A DNA stretch of 64,000 nt, from contig DAOOOW010000003.1 in the NCBI GenBank assembly GCA_035387885.1, forward strand, positions 3,498 through 67,497, in the 5' to 3' direction. A model generated the notes under the pieces. That model saw only the letters and a list, made by a program, of their open reading frames with translations, was not told the DNA's origin and ran no database searches. Every line of letters begins with the position of its first letter. The stretch's first letter is position 1. Made by a program: the position numbers and the translations under genes. Of the stretch, positions 667 through 28,022 are shown one piece after another. This stretch comes from a bacterium. Its GTDB lineage: Bacteria > Patescibacteriota > Patescibacteriia > UBA2196.

Positions 667-1233
667 ATGCCTAAAATTCTCCTTCATTCCTGTTGCGCGC
701 CATGTGGCGGGCAAGTAATTAATGAATTAAAAGCGCAGGGCTTTGAGGTCACTGTCTTTTTTTATAATCCCAATATTTTCCCAATTGAAGAATATGAAAT
801 TAGAAAAAATGAAATAGAAAAATTTTGCCAAAGTCAAAACGTGGAATTTATAGCAGAGGATTACAATCATAAAAAGTGGCTAGAATTTATTAAAGGATTA
901 GAAAAAGAACCAGAAGGCGGACCTCGTTGTTTTAAATGCTATGAATTTCGTCTACAAGAAACAGCTAAATATGCTAAAGAAAATAATTTTGAATATTTTG
1001 CTTCCACACTTTCCATTTCGCCGCACAAAAATGCCGAAAAAATAAATGAAATCGGTAGGGAAGTTGTCTTCAGTCTCCTGACTGGAGACGTAATGCCTCA
1101 TTTAATTTTTTACGAAGCTGACTGGAAAAAACACGACGGCTTTAAAAAATCCTGCGAATTATCTAAAACTCATAATTTTTATCGCCAAAAATATTGTGGC
1201 TGTGAGTTTAGCTTTCATTTGTCTACGCTCTAA
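667..1233 (+). CDS. queH: epoxyqueuosine reductase QueH (DUF208)
   Basis: N-terminal LLHSCCAPC motif and Cys pattern typical of QueH, about 190 aa. It carries an in-frame palindromic insert at 1063-1096. Confidence 0.8.
   Translation: MPKILLHSCCAPCGGQVINELKAQGFEVTVFFYNPNIFPIEEYEIRKNEIEKFCQSQNVEFIAEDYNHKKWLEFIKGLEKEPEGGPRCFKCYEFRLQETAKYAKENNFEYFASTLSISPHKNAEKINEIGREVVFSLLTGDVMPHLIFYEADWKKHDGFKKSCELSKTHNFYRQKYCGCEFSFHLSTL
1063..1096. repeat. GC-rich palindromic mini-element (family B), in-frame inside queH
   Basis: gttgtcttcagtctcctgactggagacgtaatgc is near-identical to 27096-27129. It translates to VVFSLLTGDVMP. Confidence 0.6.
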
Positions 1234-1256
1234 AATATCTAATTAACGCTCCGGCG

Positions 1257-1277
1257 CCTGCCTGCCGGCGAGGCAGG
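1257..1277. repeat. GC-rich palindromic mini-element (family A core cctgcctgccggcgaggcagg)
   Basis: Perfect 7-bp stem cctgcct/aggcagg with a gccggcg centre. Copies sit at 23105-23125 (inverted) and 26089-26109. Confidence 0.7.
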
Positions 1278-1474
1278 GATAAATTCCAGTATTTTAATTT
1301 TGTTTGTAAAGTGCTATACTTTAAATATAAAAACCTGCTCGCCGTAGTGATAATTAGTCGTTATGGAGCGAAGGCGGGTACTTAAATATGACTCATGATA
1401 AATGACTAGATTTAAAAGATAAAATTAGCTCTAATTTTAAAATTGAAGAGTCTAAAAAAGAAACATTAGAAAAT

Positions 1475-1711
1475 GTGTCAGATTCTGTTTGCGAAACTTT
1501 GATTTTTAACGGTCCAAATGGTAAAATAAAGTTAGAGTGGATATCTAAACCCAAAATTTTGGGTGAAAAAACTTTGTATTCCGGTCGGGTGGGCGCTGAT
1601 GTTAAGGTTGAAAAAGTTTATAGTCAAGATGAAAAATCAGAATTTCTTAAGGCCTATCTTTTTAAAGATAATGATTGGCAAGAAATTAATACTCAAAATT
1701 TTAATTTTTAA
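1475..1711 (+). CDS. hypothetical small protein (78 aa)
   Basis: ORF only, no recognisable motif. Confidence 0.35.
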   Translation: MSDSVCETLIFNGPNGKIKLEWISKPKILGEKTLYSGRVGADVKVEKVYSQDEKSEFLKAYLFKDNDWQEINTQNFNF

Positions 1712-1728
1712 ATAATTATTTACTCATT

Positions 1729-1787
1729 AGTTTTGACTTTTGAGTTTTGACTTTTGAGTTTTGACTTTTGAGTTTTTTATTATGTTC
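1729..1787. repeat. tandem repeat, 14-bp unit ttttgagttttgac x about 4
   Basis: Directly visible tandem array immediately upstream of a small membrane-peptide ORF. Confidence 0.7.
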
Positions 1788-1934
1788 ATCGGCACAATTT
1801 TATTCATTACAGGTTTGGCGTTTTTGTTAAAAAATTTGGGCATCCTTTCTGGTGTTACCTGGTCATTTATTTGGCCAGTGGTTATTATGCTCATTGGTTT
1901 ATCCATGATTATTAACAAAAAGAAATTAGTCTAG
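1782..1934 (+). CDS. small hydrophobic peptide (50 aa, 2 predicted TM)
   Basis: ATG at 1782, sequence MFIGTILFITGLAFLLKNLGILSGVTWSFIWPVVIMLIGLSMIINKKKLV. It is not in the ORF track because it is under 60 aa. The antisense track ORF 1727..1918 is probably spurious. Confidence 0.35.
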   Translation: MFIGTILFITGLAFLLKNLGILSGVTWSFIWPVVIMLIGLSMIINKKKLV

Positions 1935-1991
1935 CTTATTTTTAAATTAATTTGTTAACTCGTTAATTAATTAACTTGTTAATTAAGTTTT

Positions 1992-3617
1992 ATGTTAGAT
2001 CAAAAAAATTTAGAAGCAGTACCTCAAAATACTGTTGGCTCAACAGTTAGTTCAGAAACCAACATACCTTTAAAAATAATCAAAGAACTTTTTAAAAATT
2101 CTATTGCTTTAACTTGGTTAAAAAAGTGGCGTTTTATTTTTTTAAATATCATTCCTAAATTAATAGGTTTTTTACCTTTTCTGTTTTTGGGGGTTATTTA
2201 TGCAATTCTAGTATTTCAAGTGGGTTTTTCCAAATCTCTCATCAGTATTTCTCTGGTAGCTGGTTTTTTAGCTATTTTTTGTTTACTTTTTTTAATATCT
2301 TGTGTGTTTTGGTCTCAAAACGCTTATATTAATTATTTACAAACTAATGAAGAATCAAAAAAAACAATTTTAAAAAATAGTCGTAAGAAAGTTTGGAAAT
2401 TTTTTTGGGTTAGTATTTTAAGTGGTTTTATGGCTTTTGGTTATTTAATTTTGTTTTTTATCGTTGCGCCATTATTTTATATTTTTGTATCAACAGCAAC
2501 TATTGGCCTAGTGATTGGCGGTATAGTGTTTTTGGTTTTATTGATTCATGGCATCATCAGGGCCATTAAATTTAGTTTAGCCCCTTTAGCTTATTTAATT
2601 GATGATAAAACTGGTATGTTGGCTATTAAACACAGTGAATTCTTAACTTCTGGTTATCGCTGGGCTATTTTTAAAAGAAGTTTGGTTTTTGGATATTTTC
2701 AATTTGTTATTCAAGTTCTTGTTGGTGTGTTGGTTGTATTGGTGGGTCTACTTTTAGGCTTGGGTGGTTTAATTGGTATTCTTGGCACGATATTAATAAT
2801 AGTTTTATCTTTCATTAATATTTTTATTGGTTTATTGTTGGAACCCTTGGGTTATGTATATAATTTTGATATTTATAATAATTTAAAATTAAATAAACAA
2901 ACTGGTGAATCAAAAGAAAAATATTCTTTAGGACAAAAAATAGTTGTTTTATTGTTAATGATTGTTTTGCCGATTATGGCTATTGGTTTTTCTTTGCTTT
3001 TAAATCTTATTAGTCCTGAAAAAGACAATTTAGATAATAATATTTTTTCTTCTTTTGTTAATCAAATAGCTCCAGGCACCATGGAAAATTCAGCCAATAT
3101 TTTAATTAATTTTGAAGAAGATGATTTAAACACTGTTAGCGATCAACAACAACAAGCCAACGATGAATTGTTAAAAACTCTCAATTCACTAACCGAGGCG
3201 GAGACTGTGACAGCTAACAATCTTTTTGTCAAAACTTATCGATCTATGATGAATGGAGAAAACATACCAGAATTTTCAGAAACAGAATTTCAGTTTTTAA
3301 TTATTATGCAGGGTCTTGATGCCACCCCAATTAATAATTTATCTTTAGAAAAAAAGAAATTTATCTGGAATATTTTTTATGTTGATGGTTTAAAAGAACA
3401 AAATGAACAAATTGATTTAAATGATGATATTAATCAAAATGTCGTTCAAGATAATATCAATCAAGACGTTGATCAAGACGGTCTAACTGATGATTGGGAA
3501 AAATATTATAAAACAGATGTCAACAATCCTGATACAGATGGTGATGGTTATTTTGATGGCGACGAGGTGCAAAATGGTTATGATCCCGCTTTGCCTGGCG
3601 ATGCTAAATTAAAATAA
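1992..3617 (+). CDS. polytopic membrane protein with an acidic C-terminal tail of TSP3-like Ca-binding repeats (DxDxDG)
   Basis: Multiple hydrophobic segments. The C-terminus reads DQDGLTDDW...NPDTDGDGYFDGDE. Confidence 0.55.
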   Translation: MLDQKNLEAVPQNTVGSTVSSETNIPLKIIKELFKNSIALTWLKKWRFIFLNIIPKLIGFLPFLFLGVIYAILVFQVGFSKSLISISLVAGFLAIFCLLFLISCVFWSQNAYINYLQTNEESKKTILKNSRKKVWKFFWVSILSGFMAFGYLILFFIVAPLFYIFVSTATIGLVIGGIVFLVLLIHGIIRAIKFSLAPLAYLIDDKTGMLAIKHSEFLTSGYRWAIFKRSLVFGYFQFVIQVLVGVLVVLVGLLLGLGGLIGILGTILIIVLSFINIFIGLLLEPLGYVYNFDIYNNLKLNKQTGESKEKYSLGQKIVVLLLMIVLPIMAIGFSLLLNLISPEKDNLDNNIFSSFVNQIAPGTMENSANILINFEEDDLNTVSDQQQQANDELLKTLNSLTEAETVTANNLFVKTYRSMMNGENIPEFSETEFQFLIIMQGLDATPINNLSLEKKKFIWNIFYVDGLKEQNEQIDLNDDINQNVVQDNINQDVDQDGLTDDWEKYYKTDVNNPDTDGDGYFDGDEVQNGYDPALPGDAKLK

Positions 3618-3635
3618 AAAATAAAATAATATAAT

Positions 3636-4142
3636 ATGTTAAAAAAACAAAATCCCCATCAACATTTTAAAATGACCGAACGTGATGTCTCACATTTTTT
3701 TTCTTCTCGCAAAAATATAGCCATTTTTGTGGCGGTTGTAATTACGGTTTGCTTTAGCTCTTGGTTTTTAATTAATAATGATAAAACATCAAATTATCAG
3801 ATTGTCGTGCCCGCAGAAAAAAGTTTTAAAGAAAATCAAGATGACGTTAGTTTAAAAGAAAAATATCAAACAGAAGTCAAAAAAATAGTTTTAGACTATT
3901 TGGAGCAGAGAAAAAATATTGCTAAAAATGATTTAGACAATTGTCAGACAATTATTAAGCAAACAGCGGAAAAAATTATGCAGTTGATGGTACCGGCTGA
4001 GTTTAAAAAGTTTCATTTGGAATTAGTGATTGCTGTGGATAAAGAAAATAATTATTGTGTTGATCCGAAGGTTTTTGCCAACCCAGAATCTAATGTAGTT
4101 TGGGATGAATTAAAATTACAAAACGTTTGGTTAAGTCAATAA
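3636..4142 (+). CDS. hypothetical protein with an N-terminal TM anchor
   Basis: ORF in tight + strand operon spacing. One hydrophobic segment. Confidence 0.45.
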   Translation: MLKKQNPHQHFKMTERDVSHFFSSRKNIAIFVAVVITVCFSSWFLINNDKTSNYQIVVPAEKSFKENQDDVSLKEKYQTEVKKIVLDYLEQRKNIAKNDLDNCQTIIKQTAEKIMQLMVPAEFKKFHLELVIAVDKENNYCVDPKVFANPESNVVWDELKLQNVWLSQ

Positions 4143-4148
4143 AATTTT

Positions 4149-4913
4149 ATGCTTTTTTTAAGAAAAATATTTATTTATTTATTAAGTTTAAGTAATTTGT
4201 TATTGTTTTTTTTATTGATTTATAAACCAGAAAAAAATATTTATTGGTTGGGGTTATTTATCATTTTTTTATTTTTTTTAAATCGTTTAGCTAGCGGCAA
4301 TAAACTATCTTTAAAACAATTACTTTATTTTTTTTCTTTTAGTTTAATTTTTAGTTTGGTCAGTGTTATCTTTTTAAGCCTTTTGGAAAATATAATTTTG
4401 AGCTACATTTTTATTTTTTTTATAAATCTTTTTTTGTTATTTTATTTTATTATATTATATACCTATGTTTATCGCCCCGAAGATTATTTAGTGTTTAGTC
4501 TAGTTAATTTTATTAGTTATTTGTCTTTTTGGATTTTTTATTCTTTATTTACAGTTAGTTATGTGTTTGTCAATGTTTTAAATGCTTCCATTTGGTTGGT
4601 AGCTGTATTATTAGTCATATTTTCGTTGACAATTTTAGCTTATAATTTTTCTGTGGAAAATTTGAGTATTAAAAAAAATTGGCGTTATTTTTTAGTCTAT
4701 TCATGCTTAATTGGCGAGTTGAGTTGGTTAATTGCTTGGTTGCCTTGGAATTATTTTGTTAAAGGTTTTTGTTTGGCAACTATAGCCTATTTTGTTTTAT
4801 ATTATATTATTAAAAAAATTAAACATGATTGGTTGGCAAAAAATTTTATTTGGCAGACAGCAGTATTAATATTTTTGATGATTGTAATAGTAGCCACCAC
4901 TCGTTGGTTTTAA
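4149..4913 (+). CDS. polytopic membrane protein, hypothetical
   Basis: Very hydrophobic 254 aa, operonic. Confidence 0.5.
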   Translation: MLFLRKIFIYLLSLSNLLLFFLLIYKPEKNIYWLGLFIIFLFFLNRLASGNKLSLKQLLYFFSFSLIFSLVSVIFLSLLENIILSYIFIFFINLFLLFYFIILYTYVYRPEDYLVFSLVNFISYLSFWIFYSLFTVSYVFVNVLNASIWLVAVLLVIFSLTILAYNFSVENLSIKKNWRYFLVYSCLIGELSWLIAWLPWNYFVKGFCLATIAYFVLYYIIKKIKHDWLAKNFIWQTAVLIFLMIVIVATTRWF

Positions 4914-4928
4914 ATTTTTATATTTTTT

Positions 4929-6149
4929 ATGACACAAAAAAAATTTTCCACCAGAAAAATAAAAGACTGCGAACCATCAGAAAAAAAAGAAGCTTGCCCA
5001 GACGAAACACTAGAGAATTTTTATAATGAATTTCTAGAAAAACCTATTAGAAAAAAACAAATAAATTTAATTTGGTTTTTATTTTTAACTGTAATTTTAA
5101 GTTTTTTGGCTAGTATGACTATGTTTTTTTTGTTTCTTTCTGATACATTTTACGATTCCAAAATTTCTACTTGGTTGGGTGTTGAACCCGTAACCCACAA
5201 CAATATTGTAGTTGAAAAAAAAGAAACTTATAATATAGCTGAAGAAGAATATTTAACCAACTTGCTTAAAGAAATTAAGCCAACCAGTGTGGGCATTTTT
5301 TTGCAAGATACAAAGAATAAAACTGAATATTATCAAAATGCAAATTTTGTAGGCAGTGGTATGATTATGACTAGCGACGGCTGGATAGTTACGGCCAAAA
5401 GTCTCTTAAATACTAAAAATAGTTACGTGGTTATTGATCAAAATAGCAAAATTTATCAAGTTTTAGATATTAAAATTGATGAGACTTGGGAGGTGGCCTA
5501 TTTGAAAATCGAAGCTAATAATTTGCCGGTTATGTCTTTAGCAGAATTTAACAATGTGAACCAAGGCGATAGAGTTATTTTAATAACCGGAGTCAATGGT
5601 ATTAATAGTAAAACTATCACTAGTAGAATCGCTGATGCACGCTTAGTTTTAGATAAAGAATATATTCGAGAAACTGAAAAAAATTATTTATATTTTGAAT
5701 TGGCAAGCAAGAAAAATGAAAATATATTTGTTGGTGCGCCTGTAGTTAATTATAAAAAAGAAGTAGTAGGAATTTTATTAAATAACGGTGAAGTTGATTA
5801 TGTGTTACCGGCTAGTTATCTTAAAAAACATTTTAACATGTTATTAACGCTTAAAAAATACATTCCAGCTTTTTTAGGTTTGGAATACATAGATTTAGCG
5901 GCTAATCTTAATCAAGAAACACCCACAGGGGTTTTGGTTGTTAATGTAAAAAATAATTCTCCCTTACTTAAAACATCCATAACTAAAGGCACGATCATTT
6001 TGAAAGTAGGTGATGATTTGCTTAATGTTAATAATAATTTTTCTAATTTAATTCAAGAATATCGAGTGGGTGATAAAATTAATTTGACATATTTAGATAA
6101 AAATTCTGAATCTTCAGTAGAAAAAACTTTAGGTGTCGAACTAAAATAA
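4929..6149 (+). CDS. HtrA/DegP-like trypsin-fold protein with a C-terminal PDZ domain. Catalytic triad apparently lost.
   Basis: Block GSGMIMTSDGWIVTAKSLL aligns to HtrA GSGFII..GYILTNNHVV with H changed to K/S. EVAYLKIE stands in for DIAVLKI. FVGAPVVN stands in for GNSGGPLVN with the Ser lost. A PDZ-like stretch GVLVVNVKNNSPL follows. Confidence 0.55.
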   Translation: MTQKKFSTRKIKDCEPSEKKEACPDETLENFYNEFLEKPIRKKQINLIWFLFLTVILSFLASMTMFFLFLSDTFYDSKISTWLGVEPVTHNNIVVEKKETYNIAEEEYLTNLLKEIKPTSVGIFLQDTKNKTEYYQNANFVGSGMIMTSDGWIVTAKSLLNTKNSYVVIDQNSKIYQVLDIKIDETWEVAYLKIEANNLPVMSLAEFNNVNQGDRVILITGVNGINSKTITSRIADARLVLDKEYIRETEKNYLYFELASKKNENIFVGAPVVNYKKEVVGILLNNGEVDYVLPASYLKKHFNMLLTLKKYIPAFLGLEYIDLAANLNQETPTGVLVVNVKNNSPLLKTSITKGTIILKVGDDLLNVNNNFSNLIQEYRVGDKINLTYLDKNSESSVEKTLGVELK

Positions 6150-6155
6150 TTTTTT

Positions 6156-7073
6156 ATGGTTAATAAAAAAAATAAAATTTATCAATGGTTCTTGCCTCAC
6201 GAAGATAATGGTTATAAGCCACATTCTTTAAGACATAAAAGTTTGGCCATTTATTCTAGTATTTTGATAAGCGTGAAAATTTTAGTCGCTTTTATTCTTC
6301 TTTTAAGTTATCCAAGTCCAGCGGAATTTTCCACCATTACCATTAATAGGATAGTCGAATTAACCAATCAAGAAAGAATAAAAAATGGTTTGCCGGCTTT
6401 AGAACATAATTCTGTTTTGAATTTGGCAGCTGATAAAAAAGCGCAAGACATGTTGCAAAATAATTATTTTGCTCACACATCACCTGCAGGAATTAAACCC
6501 TGGTTTTGGTTTAATGAGGTTAAATATAATTATACATATGCTGGAGAGAATTTGGCCATGAATTTTATTGAAGCCGAAGATGCTCTTGGGGCCTGGATGA
6601 ATTCTCCAAGTCATAGGGAAAATATTTTGTCAAAAAATTTTGAAGATATTGGCATTGGAGTAGCGGTTGGACAAATTAATGGTATGGAAACAACTATTGT
6701 GGTGCAAATGTTTGGTAAAACTTATACTAAAGTAGCTGGTGAATCTTTTGTGCCGACTTCAGAACCGAATCCTGTAGAACAAATAACTGGCCAGCCCACT
6801 TTGGGCGAAGAAGCCTCACAAAAAGAAGTGCGATTAGAAGCCGTTAATAATCAAGGCTGGATGACTAAATTAATTTATTATTCCGAAAGATTTTTTATAG
6901 TTTTCTTGGCCTTTATTTTAATTAATTTGTTGTTGACAATTATTGTCAGAGTGGAAATTCAACATAAACCAATAATTTTACACAGTTTGTTTGTAATTTT
7001 ATTGGCTTTAGTTATGATTTTTATTAAATTTCATTTTATAGAACAGATAGGGCGTGATTTAAATATCATATAA
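6156..7073 (+). CDS. CAP/SCP (PR-1, YkwD-like) domain protein with N- and C-terminal TM segments
   Basis: Motifs HRENIL, GENLA and FAHTSP are typical of the CAP domain. Confidence 0.7.
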   Translation: MVNKKNKIYQWFLPHEDNGYKPHSLRHKSLAIYSSILISVKILVAFILLLSYPSPAEFSTITINRIVELTNQERIKNGLPALEHNSVLNLAADKKAQDMLQNNYFAHTSPAGIKPWFWFNEVKYNYTYAGENLAMNFIEAEDALGAWMNSPSHRENILSKNFEDIGIGVAVGQINGMETTIVVQMFGKTYTKVAGESFVPTSEPNPVEQITGQPTLGEEASQKEVRLEAVNNQGWMTKLIYYSERFFIVFLAFILINLLLTIIVRVEIQHKPIILHSLFVILLALVMIFIKFHFIEQIGRDLNII

Positions 7074-7090
7074 ATAATAATATAATATTT

Positions 7091-8365
7091 ATGCTTAAAA
7101 GTAACAAAGTTTTAAAGATGCCAGATGGTTTTTTATGGGGTACAGCCACGGCTGCTCACCAAGTGGAAGGTAATAATATTAATTCTGATTGGTGGCAATG
7201 GGAACAAAAAAATGTCGGTAAAATTTTAGATGTTAAAGAAAAAAAATTCCGTAACAAAAAATTTGAACCATCAGGACTTGCTTGTGATCACTATAGTCGC
7301 TTTGAAGAAGATTTTAAATTAATTGAAGAATTGGGCAATAATGCTCATAGATTATCAATCGAATGGGCTAGAATAGAGGCCGAAGAAGGTAAATTGAATT
7401 TAGCAGAATTAGAACATTACCGACAAGTTTTAGAATCTTTAAAAAATAAAAAAATTAAAGTCATGTTAACCTTAAATCATTTTACTTTGCCCTCATGGTT
7501 AGCTGATAAGGGTGGTTGGACTAATTTTAAATCACCTTTTTATTTTAATCGATACGCAACTTTTGTGGCTAAAAATTTAGGACATCTAGTAGATTTTTGG
7601 ATTACTATTAATGAACCAGAAATTTATATGGACATGAGTTATATGTCAGGGTTTTGGCCACCACAAAAAAAAGATATTAAATTAGCTGGTTGGGTTTATT
7701 TTAATATGGCCAGAGCGCATAAAAAAGTTTATAAAAATATTCATAAAATTTTAGATAAAAAAGGACATAAAACTCAAGTTGGTTTTTCTATGAACGTGAT
7801 GTCTTTTGCTTCTTATCGCAAGCATAATTTTTGGGAATTATTTTTTGTGCATGCCGCTGATAGAATTGTTAATCATTCGTTTTATGATTTAACAAAAAAA
7901 TCTCACGATTTTTTGGGTGTTAATTATTATTTTAGGGTTAGACTTAAAAAAAATGAAGGCAGTTTAATACCCGCAGTTGATGAAGTGCATGAAGATGAAA
8001 GTGAACTTAGTGACATGGGGTGGGTGGTGTACTCTCATGGAATTTTTGATGTCTTGATGGATTTTAAAGATTTTAATTTACCAATTTATATCACAGAAAA
8101 TGGCATTGCCACTGAAGATGAAGACCAGCGAGCTAAATTTATTAGTAATCATTTGGCTGAAATTCATCATGCTATTCAAGCGGGTGTGGATGTACGAGGA
8201 TATTTTTATTGGTCGCTTTTAGATAATTTTGAGTGGGATAAGAGTTTTGGACCAAAATTTGGTTTAGTGGCAGTTGATCGGAAAAAAAAGACTCGAAAAC
8301 CCAAAGAAAGTTTTTATGCTTATCAAAAAATATGTCAAACTAATACCGTGAGGCCGGTTGCTTAA
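7091..8365 (+). CDS. glycoside hydrolase family 1 beta-glucosidase
   Basis: Motifs FLWGTATAAHQVEG, TINEP (acid/base) and ITENG (nucleophile). Confidence 0.85.
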   Translation: MLKSNKVLKMPDGFLWGTATAAHQVEGNNINSDWWQWEQKNVGKILDVKEKKFRNKKFEPSGLACDHYSRFEEDFKLIEELGNNAHRLSIEWARIEAEEGKLNLAELEHYRQVLESLKNKKIKVMLTLNHFTLPSWLADKGGWTNFKSPFYFNRYATFVAKNLGHLVDFWITINEPEIYMDMSYMSGFWPPQKKDIKLAGWVYFNMARAHKKVYKNIHKILDKKGHKTQVGFSMNVMSFASYRKHNFWELFFVHAADRIVNHSFYDLTKKSHDFLGVNYYFRVRLKKNEGSLIPAVDEVHEDESELSDMGWVVYSHGIFDVLMDFKDFNLPIYITENGIATEDEDQRAKFISNHLAEIHHAIQAGVDVRGYFYWSLLDNFEWDKSFGPKFGLVAVDRKKKTRKPKESFYAYQKICQTNTVRPVA

Positions 8366-8367
8366 TT

Positions 8368-9636: not shown

Positions 9637-9704
9637 AATATTGTTTGATAAAAGGCAAGAGCACAATTTTTATGCTAATATGTTAAAATGTTATATATGA
9701 TTTT

Positions 9705-10406: not shown

Positions 10407-10409
10407 ATT

Positions 10410-11141: not shown

Positions 11142-11176
11142 TTTTTAAATTAAGATTGACAAGAATTTAATTTTTT

Positions 11177-17511: not shown

Positions 17512-17525
17512 AAATATAATTAATT

Positions 17526-17549: not shown

Positions 17550-17560
17550 CTACAAAACTT

Positions 17561-17863
17561 ATGAAAGGCTTTATAAATTTTATTAGAGAACAAGGAGTCG
17601 TGGGTTTGGCTGTTGGTTTTATACTTGGTGGCGCAGTTTCTAAAGTGGTTTCTTCATTGGTCACCGACATTATCAATCCAATTCTGGGCATTATTCTTGG
17701 AACTGCCGGCGGATTAAAAAATGCTGTCTGGAAAGTTGGTTCCATAAGTATTTTGTATGGTGATTTGATTGCTGTGATTATTGATTTTTTGGTTATAGCT
17801 TTTGTGGTTTATTTCGGGGTTAAAATGTTAGGTATTGATAAATGGGACAAAAAGAAAGAATAG
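17561..17863 (+). CDS. mscL: large-conductance mechanosensitive channel MscL
   Basis: FINFIREQGVVGLAVGFILGGAVSKVVSSLVTDIINP aligns to the MscL TM1 and N-terminal region. Confidence 0.85.
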   Translation: MKGFINFIREQGVVGLAVGFILGGAVSKVVSSLVTDIINPILGIILGTAGGLKNAVWKVGSISILYGDLIAVIIDFLVIAFVVYFGVKMLGIDKWDKKKE

Positions 17864-17894
17864 TTTTTTGTTTAAGAATTAAAAAAATGTTTTT

Positions 17895-17923
17895 TTGACA
17901 AAATCTTTTCTTTTTGGTATAAT
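17895..17923 (+). promoter_or_regulatory. sigma70-type promoter for rnpB (TTGACA-17-TGgTATAAT)
   Basis: Consensus -35 and extended -10 with a 17-nt spacer, about 10 nt upstream of the RNase P RNA 5' end. Confidence 0.55.
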
Positions 17924-17933
17924 AAAAATCGTT

Positions 17934-18329
17934 CAAGGCGGGTGAACGGCTGCCCCGATGAGCGCAAGCAATATTGGGGAGGAAAGTCCGGACATTATAA
18001 AAAATGGTAGTCGCGAAATGCGACCAGGCATAAGAATTACTAAAAAAATAAATCACGATCGTGTTATTTTTTAAGGACAAATTCAAAACCTCGAGACAGT
18101 GCCACAGAGACAATAATAGTCCCGCATTTGCGGGATCAAAGGTGAAAAGTGAATTGGTGTTGATTTTAATCAGCTACAATTCTCGCCCAATGGTGACATT
18201 GGTGCGTGGCAAACCTTACCTAATGCAATCCCTATGGGGAGCTTAGATAGATAGTCGTATTTATTCGTAATATTCGCTTTTATTAGCAATATTCGAATAA
18301 AACAGAATCCGGCTTATGATCCCGCCTTG
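17934..18329 (+). ncRNA. rnpB: RNase P RNA (bacterial type A)
   Basis: GGGAGGAAAGTCCGGAC P4 strand. AGTGCCACAGAGACA...GCGGGATCAAAGGTGAAA matches the E. coli J11-12/P12 region. 3' ACAGAATCCGGCTTAT P4 strand. P1 pairing caaggcggg/cccgccttg. Confidence 0.85.
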
Positions 18330-18346
18330 GACAAATAAAATTTAAT

Positions 18347-19735: not shown

Positions 19736-19753
19736 AATTAAAATTAGTGTTAA

Positions 19754-19781
19754 AAAAACGGTTTTAAATACCGTTTTTTTG
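19754..19781 (+). terminator. rho-independent terminator
   Basis: aaaacggt-tttaaat-accgtttt followed by a T-run. Confidence 0.6.
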
Positions 19782-19864
19782 CCTTTTGTTTACTCTCTTG
19801 CTAAGATAAAATAAGTTTTCCACAACAATAATCTTAATATTCTGACACTTTTTAACACTACTTT

Positions 19865-20944: not shown

Positions 20945-20956
20945 TTATATACAACT

Positions 20957-21403: not shown

Positions 21404-21408
21404 GTCCG

Positions 21409-21539
21409 TAGTTTATCCCGAGCGATTAGTCGAGGGATCTCATTTAGAATTAAAAGTGATTTGTAATTAATGTATTTTTTATGCAGAACACGGGATCCCT
21501 CGGCTCATAACGACCAAAAAAGTCGCTCGGGATAAACTA
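21409..21539. repeat. MITE-like element with perfect 17-bp terminal inverted repeats (tagtttatcccgagcga / tcgctcgggataaacta) and an inner IR cgagggatc/gatccctcg
   Basis: Seen directly. 131 bp lying between the priA stop and the def start. Confidence 0.55.
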
Positions 21540-21545
21540 AAAAAA

Positions 21546-23471
21546 TTAATTTATTTTCTCAGGATTTATATCTAGCATAACATTTTTTGGCAGATTATTC
21601 AAAATTTTATCCAAAGTAATATCTAATGGAATTTTGGCAATCAAATTAAATTTAAAGTTTTTGTTTTGATGAGTATCTGGCAATGGTCCAAGAAGTTCTA
21701 TTTTTTCATCAATATTTTTAATAAATTCCGATATTTTTTTTAAAGAATTTTTTACTAATAATTCTTTTTTATCAGTGGCTATAAATTTAACCAATTGCGA
21801 AAATGGTGGATAATTAAAGTCTTGTCTAGTTTGCAATTCAGAATTATAAAATATTTCTGGCTTATTTTCTTTAATACTTTGGATGACTAAATTTTCTGGT
21901 ATATTAGTTTGTAAAACAAAATCAGCGTTATTATGAGCCGAAAAAATATTATAAAACAGCTGATAAGCCTTTTCCTCGGCTCGAAAATCACCAATATTTA
22001 ACAATTGATCAAAATTAATAAAAGCAATCAAAGCAAATTCCTTTAAATCTATTTTATTAATAACAAATCTGGTGCCAATAATTATCTGGTAATCAGCTGT
22101 TGTTTTGTGTTCCAACTTATCCAACTCTAAAATCTTGGCTTCTGGCAAAAGTTTTTGTAATTCACTTTTAACTTTTTGTGTACCCGCGCCCTTAAAATTT
22201 ATATTAATCCCGGAACATTTTGGACAAAATGGTGACATGTCTTCATGGTATTTACACCAAGAACAAACCAATTGCTTTTTTTTATTTTCATAAGCCAAAT
22301 TATTAGCACATTTTGGACATTTAAAAACATATTCACAATCTTGACAATTGACTAATTTAGCAAAACCAATACGATTATGAAACAAAAATATTTTCTGCTT
22401 ATTATTTAGTTTTTCTTTTATATTTGCTAATAATTTATCAGAAATGGGATTATAATTGCCACCCTGTCTTTCATTTTTTAAATTGACTATGCTGACAACT
22501 GCCTTTGGCCCAATGTTGCCACCTTTTTTGTCATCCTCGCGGAAGCGAGAACCCAGAAATTTTATTTTATTTGCAAATTTTTTTTTCTGGATTCCAGCTT
22601 TCGCTGGAATGACAGCCAAATTGTAAGTTTCTAAATTTGGTGCTGTCGTAGTCAAAACTAATTCCGCTCCAAAATTTTCCGCTAGCCATTCTGCCACATC
22701 TCTGGCGTCAAATCTTGGATTTGCTTCAGATTGTTTGTGATTCCAACTCTCGGCGTTTAAAATTATAAGATGTTTTAAATTAACAAACGGTAAAAAAACA
22801 GCAATTTTTGTCCCGATAATAATTTTATTTTTATTATTTAAAACATTTTGCCAAGTCTGGAAATAATCTGATTTTTTAATTTGACTATGAACAATAGCCA
22901 CATCTTTTTCTTTTACAGAACAATTGATTATTATTTTTTTAATTAAAGAAATTTCTGGTATTAAAATTAAAATTTGTTCTTTATTTTTTAAAGCCAATTT
23001 TATTTTTTCTTTAATTAAATTTTCTACTTCTGAAATATCCCGATACCATAATAATTGTGCTTTCTTTTTATTGTTTTTAATTTTTATATTTTTTTTCTGA
23101 TTTCCCTGCCTCGCCAGCAGGCAGGTGCTGGCGTATTTTGAATTTTTTTTAGGTAGATTCGGTACTAATGTTTTGGCTAAGCCAGTTAAAGAGCTGCCGG
23201 TTGATTGAGCTATAAATTTTATTAATTCAATTTGTTTGGCATTAATAATTGGTAATAGAGTAATAATTTTTATAATTTTTTTTAATTTAAAATGATAAAT
23301 TGGTTTTTTATTTTCTAAACCAATTATTAAACCATTAATTTTTTTATGCCCAAAATCTATAGCTACAATTTGGCCCAAAGAAATTACATTTTCCAATTCT
23401 AAAGGCACGGTATAGGAAAAAAAATCCAAACTGGCTGGTAATTTTAAAAGTGGAATAATTTGTGCTATCAT
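21546..23471 (-). CDS. priA: primosomal protein N' (PriA) homolog with degenerate helicase motifs
   Basis: PriA Cys-rich zinc region CQDCEYVFKCPKCAN...CSWC...CPKCSG. ILILIPEISL aligns to VMVPEIGL and IIGTKIAVFLPF to IGTRSALFTPF. Walker A is replaced by YRDISEVENLI and DEEHD by NAESWN. Confidence 0.8.
   Translation of the reverse strand: MIAQIIPLLKLPASLDFFSYTVPLELENVISLGQIVAIDFGHKKINGLIIGLENKKPIYHFKLKKIIKIITLLPIINAKQIELIKFIAQSTGSSLTGLAKTLVPNLPKKNSKYASTCLLARQGNQKKNIKIKNNKKKAQLLWYRDISEVENLIKEKIKLALKNKEQILILIPEISLIKKIIINCSVKEKDVAIVHSQIKKSDYFQTWQNVLNNKNKIIIGTKIAVFLPFVNLKHLIILNAESWNHKQSEANPRFDARDVAEWLAENFGAELVLTTTAPNLETYNLAVIPAKAGIQKKKFANKIKFLGSRFREDDKKGGNIGPKAVVSIVNLKNERQGGNYNPISDKLLANIKEKLNNKQKIFLFHNRIGFAKLVNCQDCEYVFKCPKCANNLAYENKKKQLVCSWCKYHEDMSPFCPKCSGININFKGAGTQKVKSELQKLLPEAKILELDKLEHKTTADYQIIIGTRFVINKIDLKEFALIAFINFDQLLNIGDFRAEEKAYQLFYNIFSAHNNADFVLQTNIPENLVIQSIKENKPEIFYNSELQTRQDFNYPPFSQLVKFIATDKKELLVKNSLKKISEFIKNIDEKIELLGPLPDTHQNKNFKFNLIAKIPLDITLDKILNNLPKNVMLDINPEKIN
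22530..22613. repeat. 84-bp palindromic element (gtcatcc family) inserted in-frame in priA
   Basis: Arms gtcatcctcgcggaagcgagaacccagaaa and tttctggattccagctttcgctggaatgac. Translates to ...IPAKAGIQKKKFANKIKFLGSRFREDDKKGG... Confidence 0.6.
23105..23125. repeat. family A palindromic mini-element (inverted copy) in-frame in priA
   Basis: cctgcctcgccagcaggcagg. The extended 33-bp match to 1246-1278 is in reverse orientation. Translates to TCLLARQGNQ. Confidence 0.65.
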
Positions 23472-23772
23472 AAAATTATCTTATCGTGTTTGTTGGTTTA
23501 ATGGCTCTGCCTGCCCCGCATCTGCGGTGGCCTTGAACCATTTTGTTCCTTCAGTAAAACTCGTTTATTACTTTGAGGCATTAAGGTTCAAAGTAGAGCT
23601 TTGAATCAACGTTGAGGTGGTTATGCTTTGCCGATAGGCGTTATTTACTATTCCAATTTTAACATTTTACAGCTAACTTGTATAATGGTATAATATAAAC
23701 AATTCTTAATTATTAATTTTGAATTTTGAATGTCATGGTTTATTTTTATTAAAAATTAAAAATTATAATTAT

Positions 23773-24789
23773 ATGCCTACAAAAAAACCCATCCGCCTAG
23801 CTATTAATGGTTTTGGTCGTATTGGCCGAGCCGCTTTTAAAATCGCTTTGGAAAACCTCAAGTTTCAAGTGGTGGCTATTAATGATCTAACAGATAATGC
23901 CACTTTGGCCCATTTATTAAAATATGATTCTGTCTATGGTGTTTATAATCACGAGATTAAAAGTGATGAGGACAATATTTATGTTGACCAAGTTAAATAT
24001 CCCTCTTTTTCCATAAAAGATTTAGAACAATTATCTTGGCAAGATTTGCAAGTGGACGTGGTTTTAGAATGCACTGGAAAATTTGTTAAAGATAGTGTGG
24101 CTTCTGGTCATATTAAGGCTGGTGCTAAAAAAGTTATTTTATCAGCTCCGTCAAAAGGCACGCCCAAAGCACCAACCTATTTAATCGGTGTTAATGAAGA
24201 TAAATATAAAGGCGAGAGTGTTATTTCCAATGCATCTTGCACCACCAATTGTATTGCCCCAGTGACTAAAGTTATTTTAGATAATTTTGGTATAAAAAAA
24301 GCTTTTCTAAATACTATTCATTCCTATACTGCAGATCAAAATTTGGTTGATGGTCCACATAAAGATTTGCGTCGTGCTCGTAGCGCTGCTTACAATATTA
24401 TACCAACTTCTACTGGCGCGGCTATTGCGGTGACAGAAGTTTTGCCAGAATTAAAAGGTAAATTTGACGGCGTGGCTTTGCGGGTGCCTACAATTTGCGG
24501 TTCTATTTCAGACATTACTTATGTTTTAAAAAAGAAAGCTACCGTTGATAGTGTTAATAAAGCCCTTAAAAAAGCTTCTCTCGCTGCTAAAATGAAAAAT
24601 ATTTTAACAGTTAGTAATGAGCCATTGGTTTCTAGTGATATTATTGGTAATCCAGCTTCTGTAGTTGTGGATTTAGAATCCACCATGATGTTGGGTGAAG
24701 ATTATTTAAAAATTTTAGCTTGGTATGATAATGAATGGGGTTATTCATGTCGCCTTGTTGAAATGGCCGAAGTGGTCATGAAGAAATAG
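23773..24789 (+). CDS. gap: glyceraldehyde-3-phosphate dehydrogenase
   Basis: INGFGRIGR Rossmann motif and SNASCTTNCIAP active site. Start taken at MPTKKP. The track ORF has a spurious 5' extension. Confidence 0.9.
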   Translation: MPTKKPIRLAINGFGRIGRAAFKIALENLKFQVVAINDLTDNATLAHLLKYDSVYGVYNHEIKSDEDNIYVDQVKYPSFSIKDLEQLSWQDLQVDVVLECTGKFVKDSVASGHIKAGAKKVILSAPSKGTPKAPTYLIGVNEDKYKGESVISNASCTTNCIAPVTKVILDNFGIKKAFLNTIHSYTADQNLVDGPHKDLRRARSAAYNIIPTSTGAAIAVTEVLPELKGKFDGVALRVPTICGSISDITYVLKKKATVDSVNKALKKASLAAKMKNILTVSNEPLVSSDIIGNPASVVVDLESTMMLGEDYLKILAWYDNEWGYSCRLVEMAEVVMKK

Positions 24790-24799
24790 TCCTTTGTTT

Positions 24800-24853
24800 G
24801 TCATCCCCGCCGGTCTCGCCATGAATCAGGCACACAGAGCTGGGATCCCGTGA
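24800..24853. repeat. GC-rich palindromic element (gtcatcc...gggatcc family) just 3' of gap
   Basis: gtcatccccgccgg...gggatcccgtgaa. Related to 27055-27091. Confidence 0.5.
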
Positions 24854-24872
24854 ATATAACATGGAGGTTAAT

Positions 24873-25037
24873 ATGTTTTATATAGCATATTATTTATTAA
24901 TTTTGGTTGTTTGTTGCATTATTTTTTTGATTATGATTTTTGGTATTATGTTTTGGAGGTTTAAAATAGCCAAAACACAAACGGAAAAAATTTTTTCACT
25001 AAAAAAGCCACTCAGCAGAGTGGCTTTTTATGTCTAA
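24873..25037 (+). CDS. small hydrophobic peptide (54 aa, one TM, basic C-terminus)
   Basis: GGAGG RBS 6 nt upstream. MFYIAYYLLILVVCCIIFLIMIFGIMFWRFKIAKTQ... The 3' end runs through hairpin DR1. Confidence 0.3.
   Translation: MFYIAYYLLILVVCCIIFLIMIFGIMFWRFKIAKTQTEKIFSLKKPLSRVAFYV
25005..25026. repeat. hairpin direct repeat DR1 (aagccact-cagcag-agtggctt)
   Basis: 8-bp stem, 6-nt loop, followed by a T-run. Near-identical copy at 25511-25532. Confidence 0.7.
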
Positions 25038-25073
25038 CTTTAGCTAAAATATTTTGCTATACATAACTTTTGC

Positions 25074-25100
25074 TTGACAAATCTCTCTCTCTGCTATAAT
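25074..25100 (+). promoter_or_regulatory. near-consensus sigma70 promoter TTGACA-N15-TGcTATAAT with a (CT)5 spacer
   Basis: Seen directly. A GGGAGGG Shine-Dalgarno sits at 25164-25170. Confidence 0.6.
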
Positions 25101-25173
25101 GGAAATATCAAAAAAGATATACATTGTTACAGTAAATGCAATGAGCAATAAATCTAACTCCTAGGGAGGGATT

Positions 25174-25497
25174 ATGTCAAAAGTGAAAGCAAGAGAGGTG
25201 TTGTCAGTAAGTAAACACGGTCCTGACTACCACTGGTTTCATCTGGTAGTCAACGGGCTGCAAACACTGACGGTTTCTGATGCTGCAGCGGTATGGATCG
25301 TAGATGATACGGTTCATAAGACCACTGCAATTATCACCAGAGCTTGGGAAAAGTATGATGATCAAAAAGATCTCGTTGTTAAACGGGCTAAAATCACTGG
25401 CCCGGAGTTTCAAATCCTGAATCTTCTAAGTAGCCTTGGGATGGGGACTCCTGAAGTCGCAGCTATTCCTTGGCAAAAAAATGAAGATGCTGTGTAA
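25174..25497 (+). CDS. hypothetical protein (107 aa) on a compositionally foreign cassette
   Basis: GC is about 45-50% against about 28% in the flanks. Codon usage differs (ctg/ggc/acg rich). Strong promoter and RBS. Flanked by hairpin direct repeats. Confidence 0.6.
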   Translation: MSKVKAREVLSVSKHGPDYHWFHLVVNGLQTLTVSDAAAVWIVDDTVHKTTAIITRAWEKYDDQKDLVVKRAKITGPEFQILNLLSSLGMGTPEVAAIPWQKNEDAV

Positions 25498-25510
25498 TCT
25501 TCGTCTTGAA

Positions 25511-25532
25511 AAGCCACTCAACAGAGTGGCTT
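25511..25532. repeat. hairpin direct repeat DR2 (aagccact-caacag-agtggctt)
   Basis: Differs from DR1 by one loop base. Also serves as a bidirectional terminator between the cassette and the convergent GT gene. Confidence 0.7.
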
Positions 25533-25548
25533 TTGTATTTAATATTTT

Positions 25549-26736
25549 TTATTCCTGGTAGACTTTTTCCGTCTCTCTCAGCATTTTTTCCAAGCTAAAA
25601 TTTTTTATTTTTTCCAAATTATTGTGGCTGAATTTTTCTGCCAATTTTGGATCATCCAAAATTTTTTCTAAAGCCCTAGTAATTTCTCTGGGTTTTTCTT
25701 TGTTAACTATTAGACCATTAGCATCTTGTTCAACAATTTCTAACATGCCTCCAACAGAGGTGGCCACAACAGGTAATCCAGCAGCCATGGCTTCCATAAC
25801 AGAATAGGAAAAACCTTCTTTAACAGAGGGCAAACAAAAAATATCAAAAGCTTTTAAAAGTTCATAAGCTTTATCAATATTACCAACAAGAAAAAAAACA
25901 TTCTCTAAATTTAATTGCTTAATTTCACGTTCTAGGTTTTTTCTTTGTCCACCTTCACCAATAACTATAAAAATAACTTGTGGATTTTTTTCTTTTAAAA
26001 TTTTGGCTGCTCGAATTAAGTAAATTAGACCTTTGGTGGCATATAAATTGGCAATAGTGCCAATAAGTGGTGAGTAATCCCTAATTTGCCTGCCTGCCGG
26101 CGAGGCAGGTAATCTGTAATTGGTAATTAATGTTTTTCTAGCTTCAGATTTTTCTAAAAAATTTAATTTAGTTAAATCAATACCGTTGTGAATAGTAATA
26201 AATTTATGATGGGGAGCTATTTTGTGATTTAAACCAGTGATTTTATCTAATTCGGAAACACAAATGATTTTATCTTTAAAATGTCCAGATATTCTTTCAG
26301 ACCATTGGTAAAATAATTTTCTACCAAGAGATATTGGTTCGTTAAACACAAAACCATGAACAGTATAAATTATTTTGACTTTTTTACCACTTATCTTTTT
26401 ATAAAGCCAGCCCATAACTGCGCCGGTCGAGCCAATTTTACTGGAATTTAAATGAATAATATCTGGTTGAGATTTTTCAAGTAGCCGATAAATTTCTAAG
26501 CCTGATAAAAAATCATGCCAGAGATTTATTTCTCTGACAACATGTTTAAGTCGCCAAACTTTAAAACCCTTTTGAGACAAACTTTCTAGCCAATCAACAA
26601 CGGGGTGTTCTTTTTTTTCTCCGACCGCAATTTCTATAATATATTTATTAGCAGGTAAATTTTCTGCCAAATCAATAATATATTTTTGGGCGCCACCAAA
26701 TTCACTTTGAGTGACAAGATAGAGAATTTTAATCAT
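25549..26736 (-). CDS. GT4 family glycosyltransferase
   Basis: GT-B N-terminal GGAQ motif and C-terminal EGFSYSVMEAMAAGLPVVAT. In-frame family A element at 26089-26109 (PASPAGRQ). Confidence 0.8.
   Translation of the reverse strand: MIKILYLVTQSEFGGAQKYIIDLAENLPANKYIIEIAVGEKKEHPVVDWLESLSQKGFKVWRLKHVVREINLWHDFLSGLEIYRLLEKSQPDIIHLNSSKIGSTGAVMGWLYKKISGKKVKIIYTVHGFVFNEPISLGRKLFYQWSERISGHFKDKIICVSELDKITGLNHKIAPHHKFITIHNGIDLTKLNFLEKSEARKTLITNYRLPASPAGRQIRDYSPLIGTIANLYATKGLIYLIRAAKILKEKNPQVIFIVIGEGGQRKNLEREIKQLNLENVFFLVGNIDKAYELLKAFDIFCLPSVKEGFSYSVMEAMAAGLPVVATSVGGMLEIVEQDANGLIVNKEKPREITRALEKILDDPKLAEKFSHNNLEKIKNFSLEKMLRETEKVYQE
26089..26109. repeat. family A palindromic mini-element, in-frame in a GT4 gene
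   Basis: cctgcctgccggcgaggcagg, identical to 1257-1277. Confidence 0.7.
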
Positions 26737-26792
26737 ATTTTATATTATATAACAAATTGCCATTTTGAGCAAAAAGAGCTAAAATAGAAAAT

Positions 26793-28022
26793 ATGCAACT
26801 CAAGCAGGAAAAACCCAAAATTTTAATTTTTTCTTTAGCTTATTTTCCATTTATTGGTGGTGCGGAAGTCGCGGTAAAAGAAATTATTACACGTTTACCG
26901 GAATTTGAATTTGACATGATTACTTGTAATTTAGATGGACAACAAAAAGCCGAAGAACAAATTAATAATATAAAAATTTATCGAGTTGGCAGAGGAAAAT
27001 TTGCTAAAATATTTTTTCCATTTTTGGCATACAAAAAAGCATGCTCTCTCTTTTGTCATCCCGACGATCCGCCAACCGGCGGACGGGATCCTTATGTTGT
27101 CTCCAGTCTCTTGACTGGAGACGCAATGCACTATCGCTCCAGTCAGGAGACTGGAGCGAACAACTATATTATCTGGTCCATCATGGCCAATCAAGCCGGT
27201 CTAGCTGCTTTATTTTTTAAGAAAAAATTTCCTCAAGTTAAATTTTTATTAACTTTGCAAGAAGGCGATTCTGTTTTTAATATTTGGAAAAAAACTTGGT
27301 ACATGCGCCCGCTTTATAAAGCCATTTATCATTCGGCTGATTGCATTCAAGCTATTAGTAATTTTTTAGCCAAGAGAGCTCTTAAATATGGTTACAAAGG
27401 ACCAATAGAAGTGATACCCAACGGAGTAGATTTAGAAAAATTTAAGTATCTTGAAAAAAATTTGCTTGATAAAAAAGACAAAGTAATTTTGACAGACTCT
27501 CGATTGGTGGAAAAAAATGGTGTGGAATATTTAATTAAAGCCATGATTCTAATTAATATTAAAATTAAATTATTAATTTTAGCTGATGGACCACTGAGAG
27601 AATATTTACAAAAACTGGTTGTTAATTTAAACTTGCAAGACAGAGTTGAATTTTTGGGTTTAATTCCTTATGATAATATTCAAAAATATTATGCCGAGGC
27701 AGATGTTTTTGTGCGGCCGTCATTAACAGAAGGTTTTGGTAATGTTTTTATTCAAGCTATGGCCGCTGGAATTCCAGTTATTGCCACACCAGTTGGCGGT
27801 ATTCCAGATTTTTTGAAAGCAGGGGAGACGGGATGGTTTTGTGAAGTAAAAAATCCACAAAGTATTGCCGAAAAAATAAATTATATTTTAGATGAAAAAA
27901 ATAAAGATGAAGTTGAACGAGTAGTGGCTAATGCCAAAAAGATGGTTGAAGAAAAATATACTTGGGAAATTGTGACTAAAAAAATGAAAAATATTTTTGT
28001 TTCCCTAATTTTTAATTTTTAA
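26793..28022 (+). CDS. GT4 family glycosyltransferase carrying an in-frame insert of about 105 nt
   Basis: C-terminal EGFGNVFIQAMAAGIPVIATPVGG. The insert encodes CHPDDPPTGGRDPYVVSSLLTGDAMHYRSSQETGAN. Confidence 0.8.
   Translation: MQLKQEKPKILIFSLAYFPFIGGAEVAVKEIITRLPEFEFDMITCNLDGQQKAEEQINNIKIYRVGRGKFAKIFFPFLAYKKACSLFCHPDDPPTGGRDPYVVSSLLTGDAMHYRSSQETGANNYIIWSIMANQAGLAALFFKKKFPQVKFLLTLQEGDSVFNIWKKTWYMRPLYKAIYHSADCIQAISNFLAKRALKYGYKGPIEVIPNGVDLEKFKYLEKNLLDKKDKVILTDSRLVEKNGVEYLIKAMILINIKIKLLILADGPLREYLQKLVVNLNLQDRVEFLGLIPYDNIQKYYAEADVFVRPSLTEGFGNVFIQAMAAGIPVIATPVGGIPDFLKAGETGWFCEVKNPQSIAEKINYILDEKNKDEVERVVANAKKMVEEKYTWEIVTKKMKNIFVSLIFNF
27055..27158. repeat. composite GC-rich palindromic insertion (gtcatcc...gggatcc unit plus a family B unit with two hairpins)
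   Basis: 27096-27129 matches 1063-1096 closely. Second hairpin cgctccagtcaggagactggagcg. Confidence 0.65.

Follow-up and report, generated by a model that had tools for sequence, protein, structure and literature searches.

Palindromic repeats of probable REP type inserted in frame in genes of an AT-rich member of the Patescibacteria

RESULTS

Palindromic units in queH and in a glycosyltransferase gene

The stretch of DNA analysed here, referred to as the window, comprises 64000 nucleotides (positions 3498–67497 of contig DAOOOW010000003.1, assembly GCA_035387885.1), has a G+C content of approximately 30% and encodes proteins whose best matches lie in metagenome-assembled genomes (MAGs) of the Patescibacteria, or candidate phyla radiation (CPR), named Falkowbacteria, Kuenenbacteria and Buchananbacteria. 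Short GC-rich palindromic units lie in frame inside three of its genes, i.e. queH, encoding the epoxyqueuosine reductase QueH (667–1233, plus strand; Pfam PF02677, E = 5e-66), priA, encoding primosomal protein N′ (21546–23471, minus strand; Pfam PriA_3primeBD and PriA_C), and a gene for a GT4-family glycosyltransferase (26793–28022, plus strand; Pfam Glycos_transf_1 and Glyco_transf_4), and a further unit lies 3′ of gap. We describe these units together with their relatives on other contigs (loci designated L) and discuss their probable origin as REP (repetitive extragenic palindromic) elements. Independent assemblies of the same contig exist in ENA, JGI, NCBI and Logan data, and the insert sequences recur in at least four assemblies and are identical across those examined apart from one single-nucleotide polymorphism (SNP); this identity in independent assemblies excludes an assembly artefact.

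The unit in queH (1063–1096, plus strand) is a singlet of what we term family B, built from a GTT tag, a 10-bp stem GTCTTCAGTC/GACTGGAGAC with one G.T pair, the loop TCCT and the tail GTAATGC, and is translated in frame as VVFSLLTGDVMP, given for 1063–1096 as VVFSLLTGDVM. Its counterpart in the GT4 gene (27096–27129, plus strand; GTTGT CTCCAGTC tctt GACTGGAG AC GCAATGC) is translated as VVSSLLTGDAMH, given as VVSSLLTGDAM. The hairpin of approximately 34 bp that the initial annotation had assigned to both genes is thus present and in frame at these positions; the two copies, each with a 10-bp stem and a 4-nt loop, are identical at 31 of 34 nucleotides, with 0.00 chance matches expected.

In the GT4 gene the family B unit is followed by a second one in inverted orientation (27127–27164, minus strand; GTTGTTCG CTCCAGTC tcct GACTGGAG CG ATAGTGCA), with its core at 27137–27156 and a tail that overlaps the tail of unit 1; on the plus strand it is translated as (H)YRSSQETGANN. 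Together the two units form a REPIN-like doublet with the ends GTTGT...ACAAC. Positioned 5′ of the doublet is a singlet of a different kind, which carries the tag TGTC (‘unit C’, 27054–27092, plus strand) and reads TGTC, ATCCCG-acga-TCCGCC, aacc, GGCGGA-CGGGAT, CCT; its hairpin spans 27055–27091 with the termini GTCATCCC...CGGGATCC, and its translation is CHPDDPPTGGRDP. The composite insert of about 105 nt proposed previously was accordingly recovered as one TGTC hairpin plus two inverted family B hairpins, extending over 27055–27159 (105 nt), or over 110 nt with the terminal ACAAC included, which moves its end to 27164. As single-stranded DNA it folds into three perfect hairpins (−37.2 kcal/mol, z = −8.8).

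The sole polymorphism observed in any of the inserts lies in the inner stem of this TGTC unit, where C is replaced by T in L024 (4469–4505, corresponding to window 27055–27091), which converts a C-G pair into a T.G wobble and Pro into Ser. In addition, the short-read Logan assemblies L023, L025, L026 and L028 break inside the GT4 gene approximately 30–40 codons downstream of the composite.

The window queH retains the single hairpin plus part of a spacer, AATGCcTCATtTAAT, and the same queH site in the related locus L005 contains a full doublet, AATGCTCATTAAT. Since the CCTCATTTAAT that directly follows the window unit resembles a doublet spacer, the queH copy is probably a 3′-truncated doublet.

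TGTC-tagged units in priA and downstream of gap

The element in priA is a TGTC-tagged dimer with the tags facing outward (22529–22614, without strand assignment), seen as an 84-bp inverted repeat at 22530–22613. Its right arm, on the minus strand, follows the canonical pattern (tgtc ATTCCAGC gaaa GCTGGAAT ccag). The left arm (tgtc ATCCTCGC ggaa GCGAGAAC ccag) is degenerate, with six of its eight stem pairs formed; the arms are separated by a 26-nt A/T spacer. The inverted repeat has a folding z score of about −4 and encodes the in-frame peptide VIPAKAGIQKKKFANKIKFLGSRFREDD. The unit 3′ of gap is a TGTC-tagged singlet with a long decayed interior (24799–24848, plus strand), which is intergenic and starts 10 nt after the gap stop codon. 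It has only its termini in common with the GT4 unit (GTCATCC...GGGATCC, two occurrences as against 0.00 expected) and is not a stable hairpin (z = +0.8). As its interior is homologous with the left arm of a full dimer in the relative L071 (3391–3502), we regard it, from this alignment, as a genuine but decayed member of the TGTC family.

The initial annotation had treated the gap and priA elements as further occurrences of the GT4 unit, in priA as an inverted-repeat version of it. At gap the shared termini hold, but the interior differs and the stable hairpin is missing; in priA the 84-bp repeat and its peptide are as described, but the sequence is not a version of the GT4 unit, with which it shares the TGTC tag, a stem starting with A-T and a CC tail. 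On comparison of their sequences, the GTCATCC units and the priA element belong to one CGTC/TGTC-tagged REP superfamily and not to one family. The CGTC superfamily has been defined by a CGTC, TGTC or CCTC tag, an 8–9-bp stem starting with A-T, a 4–5-nt loop and a CCA tail; its members are mostly inverted dimers, have no dedicated transposase known, and include Rickettsia RPE-4/RPE-6 (RPE, Rickettsia palindromic element) and Neisseria dRS3 (Di Nocera et al. 2013, PMC3733652). In our material the TGTC tag precedes the stem in both priA arms and in the GT4, gap-3′, L006, L068 and L071 copies. The 8–9-bp A-T-start stem with a 4–5-nt loop is exact in the priA right arm, in L068 (tgtc ATTCCCGC gaag GCGGGAAT ccag) and in L071; the GT4 unit matches it in part, with a bulged 6+6-bp stem, as does the gap-3′ unit, with the A-T start and no stable stem. 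The tails are CCAG in both priA arms and L068, CCCG in L071 (CCCAG in its other arm), CCA in L006, CCT in GT4 and CCC at gap. The GT4, gap-3′ and L006 units retain the tag, the A-T start of the stem and the CC tail, but long variable interiors (21–39 nt) replace the simple 8–9-bp stem. The window holds three TGTC loci (one dimer and two singlets); the MAG to which it belongs contains one more dimer on another contig (L068, 851–1008).

Between def and priA, a GC-rich island at 21481–21515 contains GGGATCCCGTG, an 11-mer that also ends the gap-3′ unit, and may be another decayed copy of the TGTC type.

Insertions relative to orthologues and predicted structure

Alignment with orthologues revealed clean lineage-specific indels at the elements in all three genes. 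The closest QueH homologues (75–78% identity) show a conserved A-Q-K-H segment where the window protein has seven additional residues, and alignment with the solved QueH of T. maritima (7LC5) places a seven-residue gap exactly at LLTGDVM. The closest GT4 homologues (73–74% identity) read L-H-F-K-N-N-Y where the window protein has 33 additional residues. In PriA approximately 27 additional amino acids occupy a hypervariable linker flanked by two conserved blocks; the closest homologues, and most others, have nothing in this linker. Other PriA homologues carry different GC-hairpin peptides in the same linker (CHSERSEES...LLRMT, CHPERSDGI...SDFGMT, VIIPAQAC... and LPASLAQVGQAG), and this variety indicates that the loop has been hit repeatedly across the group. 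The same peptides, which would have marked the segments as ancestral, are not present in distant orthologues.

Structure prediction placed the inserts in loops. With AlphaFold2 the GT4 insert lies between helix 75–87 and strand 125–130 with a predicted local distance difference test (pLDDT) score below 50, the remainder of the protein being near 90, and the queH insert forms the end of helix 123–137 plus loop 138–146 at a pLDDT of 80–89, compared with 95–98 elsewhere. The distant QueH homologue P0070 has an unrelated 38-amino-acid insert at the same helix–strand junction as the window and L005 (alignment columns 168–205), and this junction seems, judging from the alignment, to be generally permissive.

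Two other classes of element were considered and rejected. A classical MITE (miniature inverted-repeat transposable element) does not fit, as filled and empty queH and GT4 sites show no target-site duplication but a replacement of a few host bases, and no parent insertion sequence was seen; the orientation of the core sites is unfit for integron attC sites.

Family B in metagenomes and its association with RAYT genes

To search for further copies, a pattern for the family B hairpin was validated on the window and known relatives before a single metagenome scan. The pattern TTGTNNCTCCAGTC... misses the window copies, in which GTTGT is followed directly by CTCCAGTC, so that its two chance matches (Nocardioides and Rhodoferax) are uninformative on absence. 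The scan returned 42 family B loci, nearly all in contigs of 31–41% G+C, as against roughly four expected by our own estimate from the information content of the pattern. Beyond the pattern the flanks show a 5′ GTT in 33 of the 42, two variable bases that pair with two bases 3′ of the stem, and a tail rich in T and A with TG at its end, giving the consensus GTT, two variable paired bases, CTCCAGTC-TCYY-GACTGGAG and the tail, or in general form GTTNN-CTCCANNC-N4-GNNTGGAG-NN. In the alignment 99.5% of cells are paired and 16 cells are changed on both sides. The outer pairs covary (GC 29, CG 8 and AU 1 at one position; GC 29, UA 4, AU 3 and GU 5 at the other), with a covariation score reached by none of 500 shuffles; since the inner 8 bp are fixed by the search pattern, only these two outer pairs are informative.

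An inverted partner hairpin lies 13–45 nt downstream in about a third of the family B copies; it is often a compensated stem variant (CTCCACTC, CTCCATAC or CTCCAATC) followed by AACA, so that the whole reads GTTnn...n′n′AAC. Besides these metagenome copies, such inverted doublets occur in the window GT4 gene, L005, L067, L068 and L069. The accession series (HPA25332 and HPA25353 for the window; HPA25399 and HPA25446 for the loci) assigns L067, L068 and L069 to the NCBI MAG that also contains the window. Of the further doublets at these loci, two are intergenic and one is in frame within the gene of a Wzy_C membrane protein. Copies thus exist on other contigs of the MAG as well as in relatives, and most are intergenic (about 30 of 40 family B copies overall). 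The hosts of the commoner gg/cc subfamily are probably also Patescibacteria, because the 90%-identity cluster of the PEP (phosphoenolpyruvate) synthase encoded at L064 includes a Candidatus Pacebacteria/Paceibacterota member. A scan of viral contigs for the bare hairpin gave 12 matches in unrelated contexts, i.e. chance level.

Contig L046 encodes an intact 179-amino-acid open reading frame (ORF) that matches the NCBIfam model for REP-associated tyrosine transposases (RAYT; NF047646) at 102.7 bits, as against a cut-off of 80, with E. coli TnpArep (4ER8) as its best PDB match and with the HUH and Tyr motifs aligned. The gene is flanked by family B hairpins in inverted orientation, 17–25 nt from each end, which is the classical REP–RAYT layout (PMC3116915, PMC3733652). 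A second RAYT gene (L033, 1194–1826, and the same in L035) encodes a 211-amino-acid protein that is 73% identical with the L046 ORF and carries two family B-derived units in frame (GLHYGSSPVNDEDLHYGSSRETGANG) right after the HUH motif. It scores 88.5 bits against NF047646, or 95.6 bits with the insert removed, and the L046 homologue is free of these units. As the tag is GTT rather than the GTAG of classical RAYT-linked REPs (the fourth base varies with the stem, and GTTG is one base from GTAG), we describe family B as RAYT-associated and REP-like, and not as a GTAG REP.

A single reading frame and recurrence at equivalent sites

The net length of every genic copy is divisible by three, and all of them lack stop codons and are read in one frame. 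All nine independent genic family B hairpins use the same one of the three frames, S-S-(L/Q/R)-(L/P/E)-T-G, although five or six of the six combinations of frame and orientation are free of stop codons; by our own arithmetic the probability of this by chance is approximately (1/3)^9. Use of a single frame would fit selection on the encoded peptide, which may form a small polar turn. In the subfamily found in the genome of the window, the two hairpins of a doublet lie 36 or 48 nt apart, both multiples of three, and this holds for intergenic copies too.

Elements also recur at the same sites in different orthologues. In the window and in L006, a TGTC unit enters the GT4 gene at one and the same nucleotide; the two units agree fully in their termini, down to the rare codons CCC and CGG, and are unrelated in their interiors. 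Family B likewise occupies the same queH loop in the window and in L005. Neighbour-joining trees built without the insert columns place the window sequences with empty orthologues (39–59% bootstrap) and the insert-bearing orthologues outside (74% at one split). Both site-directed re-insertion and an ancient insertion followed by clean losses could account for elements at the same site, and with bootstrap support of only 39–74% the gene trees do not decide between them.

Additional and nested repeats

Two further types of palindrome occur in the same region. GC-rich palindromes of ‘family A’, with the core CTGCCTGCCGGCGAGGCAGG, are located at 1239–1287, just after the queH stop codon, at 23097–23137, in frame in priA, and at 26078–26117, inside the neighbouring GT4 gene (25549–26736, minus strand). 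The priA copy yields the peptide ..STCLLARQGNQ.., seen in the PriA alignment as an insert of eight amino acids specific to the window, and priA thus carries two different in-frame repeat inserts, the TGTC dimer and family A. A fourth hairpin type (CCCCGCATCTGCGGTGG) lies at 23495–23540, between priA and gap, with its reverse complement at 1530–1560 of L005. In the L005 queH, the second family B hairpin holds in its loop a 19-nt hairpin identical with window 23506–23530, and this nesting indicates that the repeats insert into one another.

DISCUSSION

The inserts in queH, the GT4 gene and priA are lineage-specific, multicopy and constrained by covariation, they fall in loops, and family B accompanies a RAYT gene in a related organism. 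We consider it likely that they are REP-type palindromic repeats which have entered the coding DNA of AT-rich Patescibacteria, family B being most likely mobilized by a RAYT. In this mechanism, GC-rich stem–loops with a conserved single-stranded tag would have entered coding DNA, and only those copies that kept the frame and landed in a tolerant loop would have survived, to be read as extra peptide loops. The mobilizer of family B would most likely be a RAYT, i.e. an enzyme of the HUH/Y1 type, which cleaves hairpin DNA in single-stranded form and joins it again, because the RAYT gene on the related contig is flanked by the hairpins on both sides. As no RAYT was found in the window, it is by analogy that we infer that such an enzyme moved family B in this genome. 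The proposal that at least three genes carry foreign peptides derived from mobile hairpins stands with respect to lineage-specific, multicopy inserts, the hairpins being only putatively mobile in this genome today.

Several observations weigh against this interpretation. Among the assemblies of this organism there is no empty/filled polymorphism of the inserts, and hence no direct sign of recent movement. Neither a RAYT nor any other transposase was detected in the 64 kb window by tblastn with RAYT, Pfam scans or context tables. The family B tag is not the GTAG that defines the classical RAYT-linked REPs, and L046, the contig bearing the RAYT, has no established taxonomic identity, the cluster link to Candidatus Paceibacterota being that of L064, a contig with repeats of the same subfamily. 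Elements at the same nucleotide position in orthologues that fall outside the group of the window in the trees would not be predicted by simple random insertion. Lastly, the inserts are predicted to be translated on the strength of intact ORFs only.

Some of these points would be expected if the inserts were old, immobile relics, each site having received one ancient insertion that was inherited vertically, decayed and was in places cleanly lost, with nothing moving today. We regard this as possible, if rather unlikely. Every assembly contains the inserts, fixed and in almost the same form, with a single SNP between them, and relatives have related elements at the same sites. The queH copy resembles a doublet cut short, the ability to fold has been lost in the gap-3′ copy, and no transposase was detected in the window; REPIN populations have moreover been reported as vertically inherited and long-lived. 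However, with the insert-bearing orthologues outside the group formed by the window and the empty sequences (59–74% bootstrap), several exact, length-restoring losses would be needed, the DNA sequence of the termini is conserved, down to the rare codons CCC and CGG, while the interiors are unrelated, and the hairpins of the GT4 doublet are perfect and undecayed. In any case a relic history concerns timing alone and is compatible with an origin by REP insertion. The elements could also be pictured as Patescibacterial REPINs that have adapted to life inside genes, with site-directed, homing-like insertion where intergenic space is almost nil; the stop-free, one-frame doublet, the multiple-of-three spacing and the entry at the same position in different lineages suggest this idea, which we hold as doubtful and put forward tentatively.

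A very improbable alternative, in our view, is that the hairpins are selected as nucleic acid signals (for ribosome pausing, mRNA stability, or as nuclease, gyrase or recombination sites), the peptide being a by-product. G.T (G.U) pairs occupy six of the 82 outer-pair cells, and such pairs have been taken as a sign of function at the RNA level (PMC3733652); most copies are also intergenic, where REPs act on mRNA and DNA topology (PMC3733652). Yet the host genes are unrelated, their closest orthologues work without the hairpin, no Rfam family matches, and the hairpin is weak or incomplete in the gap-3′ and queH copies; the one reading frame in all genic copies points to a constraint on the peptide and not on the fold alone. 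That same frame, together with the multiple-of-three net length and the lack of stop codons, is not needed by elements that are bypassed or spliced out, and makes it extremely improbable that the inserts are absent from the mature proteins through translational bypassing, like the ‘byp’ elements of yeast mitochondria, or through splicing. GC-rich mobile hairpins are bypassed in the AT-rich coding DNA of Magnusiomyces mitochondria, and the GT4 insert is predicted to be disordered, as such a scheme would allow, but no intron or ribozyme family was detected.

The closest parallels to the REP-type inserts preferred here are found in known systems. The priA, L068 and L071 elements resemble the CGTC superfamily in their TGTC tag, 8-bp A-T-start stem, 4-nt loop, CCA(G) tail and inverted dimers, with the L068 copy reading ATTCCC-N8-GGGAAT, and differ in their host, the Patescibacteria lying outside the five phyla listed for CGTC repeats (PMC3733652). 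CGTC REPs are known in frame inside genes, many of them for replication or repair (PMC3733652). The REP/REPIN–RAYT systems (Nunvar 2010; Bertels and Rainey 2011, PMC3116915) likewise consist of short tagged palindromes, present as singlets and inverted doublets and mostly intergenic, with subfamilies that differ by compensatory stem changes, and the single flanked RAYT in L046 conforms to them. Unlike these, family B has the GTT tag, half of its known copies in the genome of the window are genic, the L033/L035 RAYT gene has repeats in its own coding sequence, and the window yielded no RAYT. Rickettsia RPE-1 (Ogata et al. 2000; PMC10969869) similarly comprises palindromes richer in GC than their AT-rich, reduced genome, inserted in frame in unrelated housekeeping genes, with a conserved peptide in one frame at the predicted protein surface. 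By description, however, RPE-1 is set apart, being approximately 100–150 bp, whereas our units measure 24–38 nt and the doublets 70–140 nt and are modular and nested, and one family here has a candidate transposase. The link to RPE-4 and RPE-6 rests on their published equation with CGTC REPs (PMC3733652).

Intragenic GTAG or CGTC REPs have been described in Opitutus terrae, R. conorii and others, those of O. terrae and others including GTAG dimers that encode 20–30 amino acids, sometimes with two in a gene (PMC3733652). PriA here likewise has two insertions, although the tag family and phylum are different, and a fixed frame is not reported for O. terrae in the portion of that text available. 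In the searchable, and incomplete, literature we found no papers linking REPs or RAYTs with Patescibacteria. As translated intragenic REPs are already known from Rickettsia and a few other bacteria, we report a new host group and not a new mechanism. What is new is the host phylum, the GTT-tagged family, the strict S-S-x-x-T-G frame and the repeated use of the same loops. The share of translated copies is unusually high, and the proposed mechanism appears well supported, by analogy with these systems and by the layout in L046.

In-frame palindromic ‘selfish DNA in genes’, described mainly in Rickettsia so far, would thus extend to the CPR. This would explain odd GC-rich peptide inserts (CHP...RDP, VIPAKAGIQ and SSLLTG/SSQETG) that confuse CPR annotation, alignments and structure prediction. 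For organisms still beyond the reach of genetic manipulation, it would also match a repeat family to a small RAYT in a form open to testing, and it would help to study the persistence of REP-type elements where genomes are very compact.

Other features of the window

An Rfam search of the window gave bacterial RNase P RNA class A (17934–18333, 131 bits) as its sole match, with none for the hairpins and no intron or ribozyme family. The RNase P RNA accounts for three GC-rich islands, and the 97-amino-acid ORF at 17820–18113 (minus strand) is therefore spurious. Most of the window (18300–62300) is taken up by one very large cell-envelope glycosylation cluster, which comprises at least ten GT4/GT2 glycosyltransferases, several B12-binding radical SAM enzymes, PMT-like mannosyltransferases, a Wzy_C-TPR protein, a flippase and sugar transferases.

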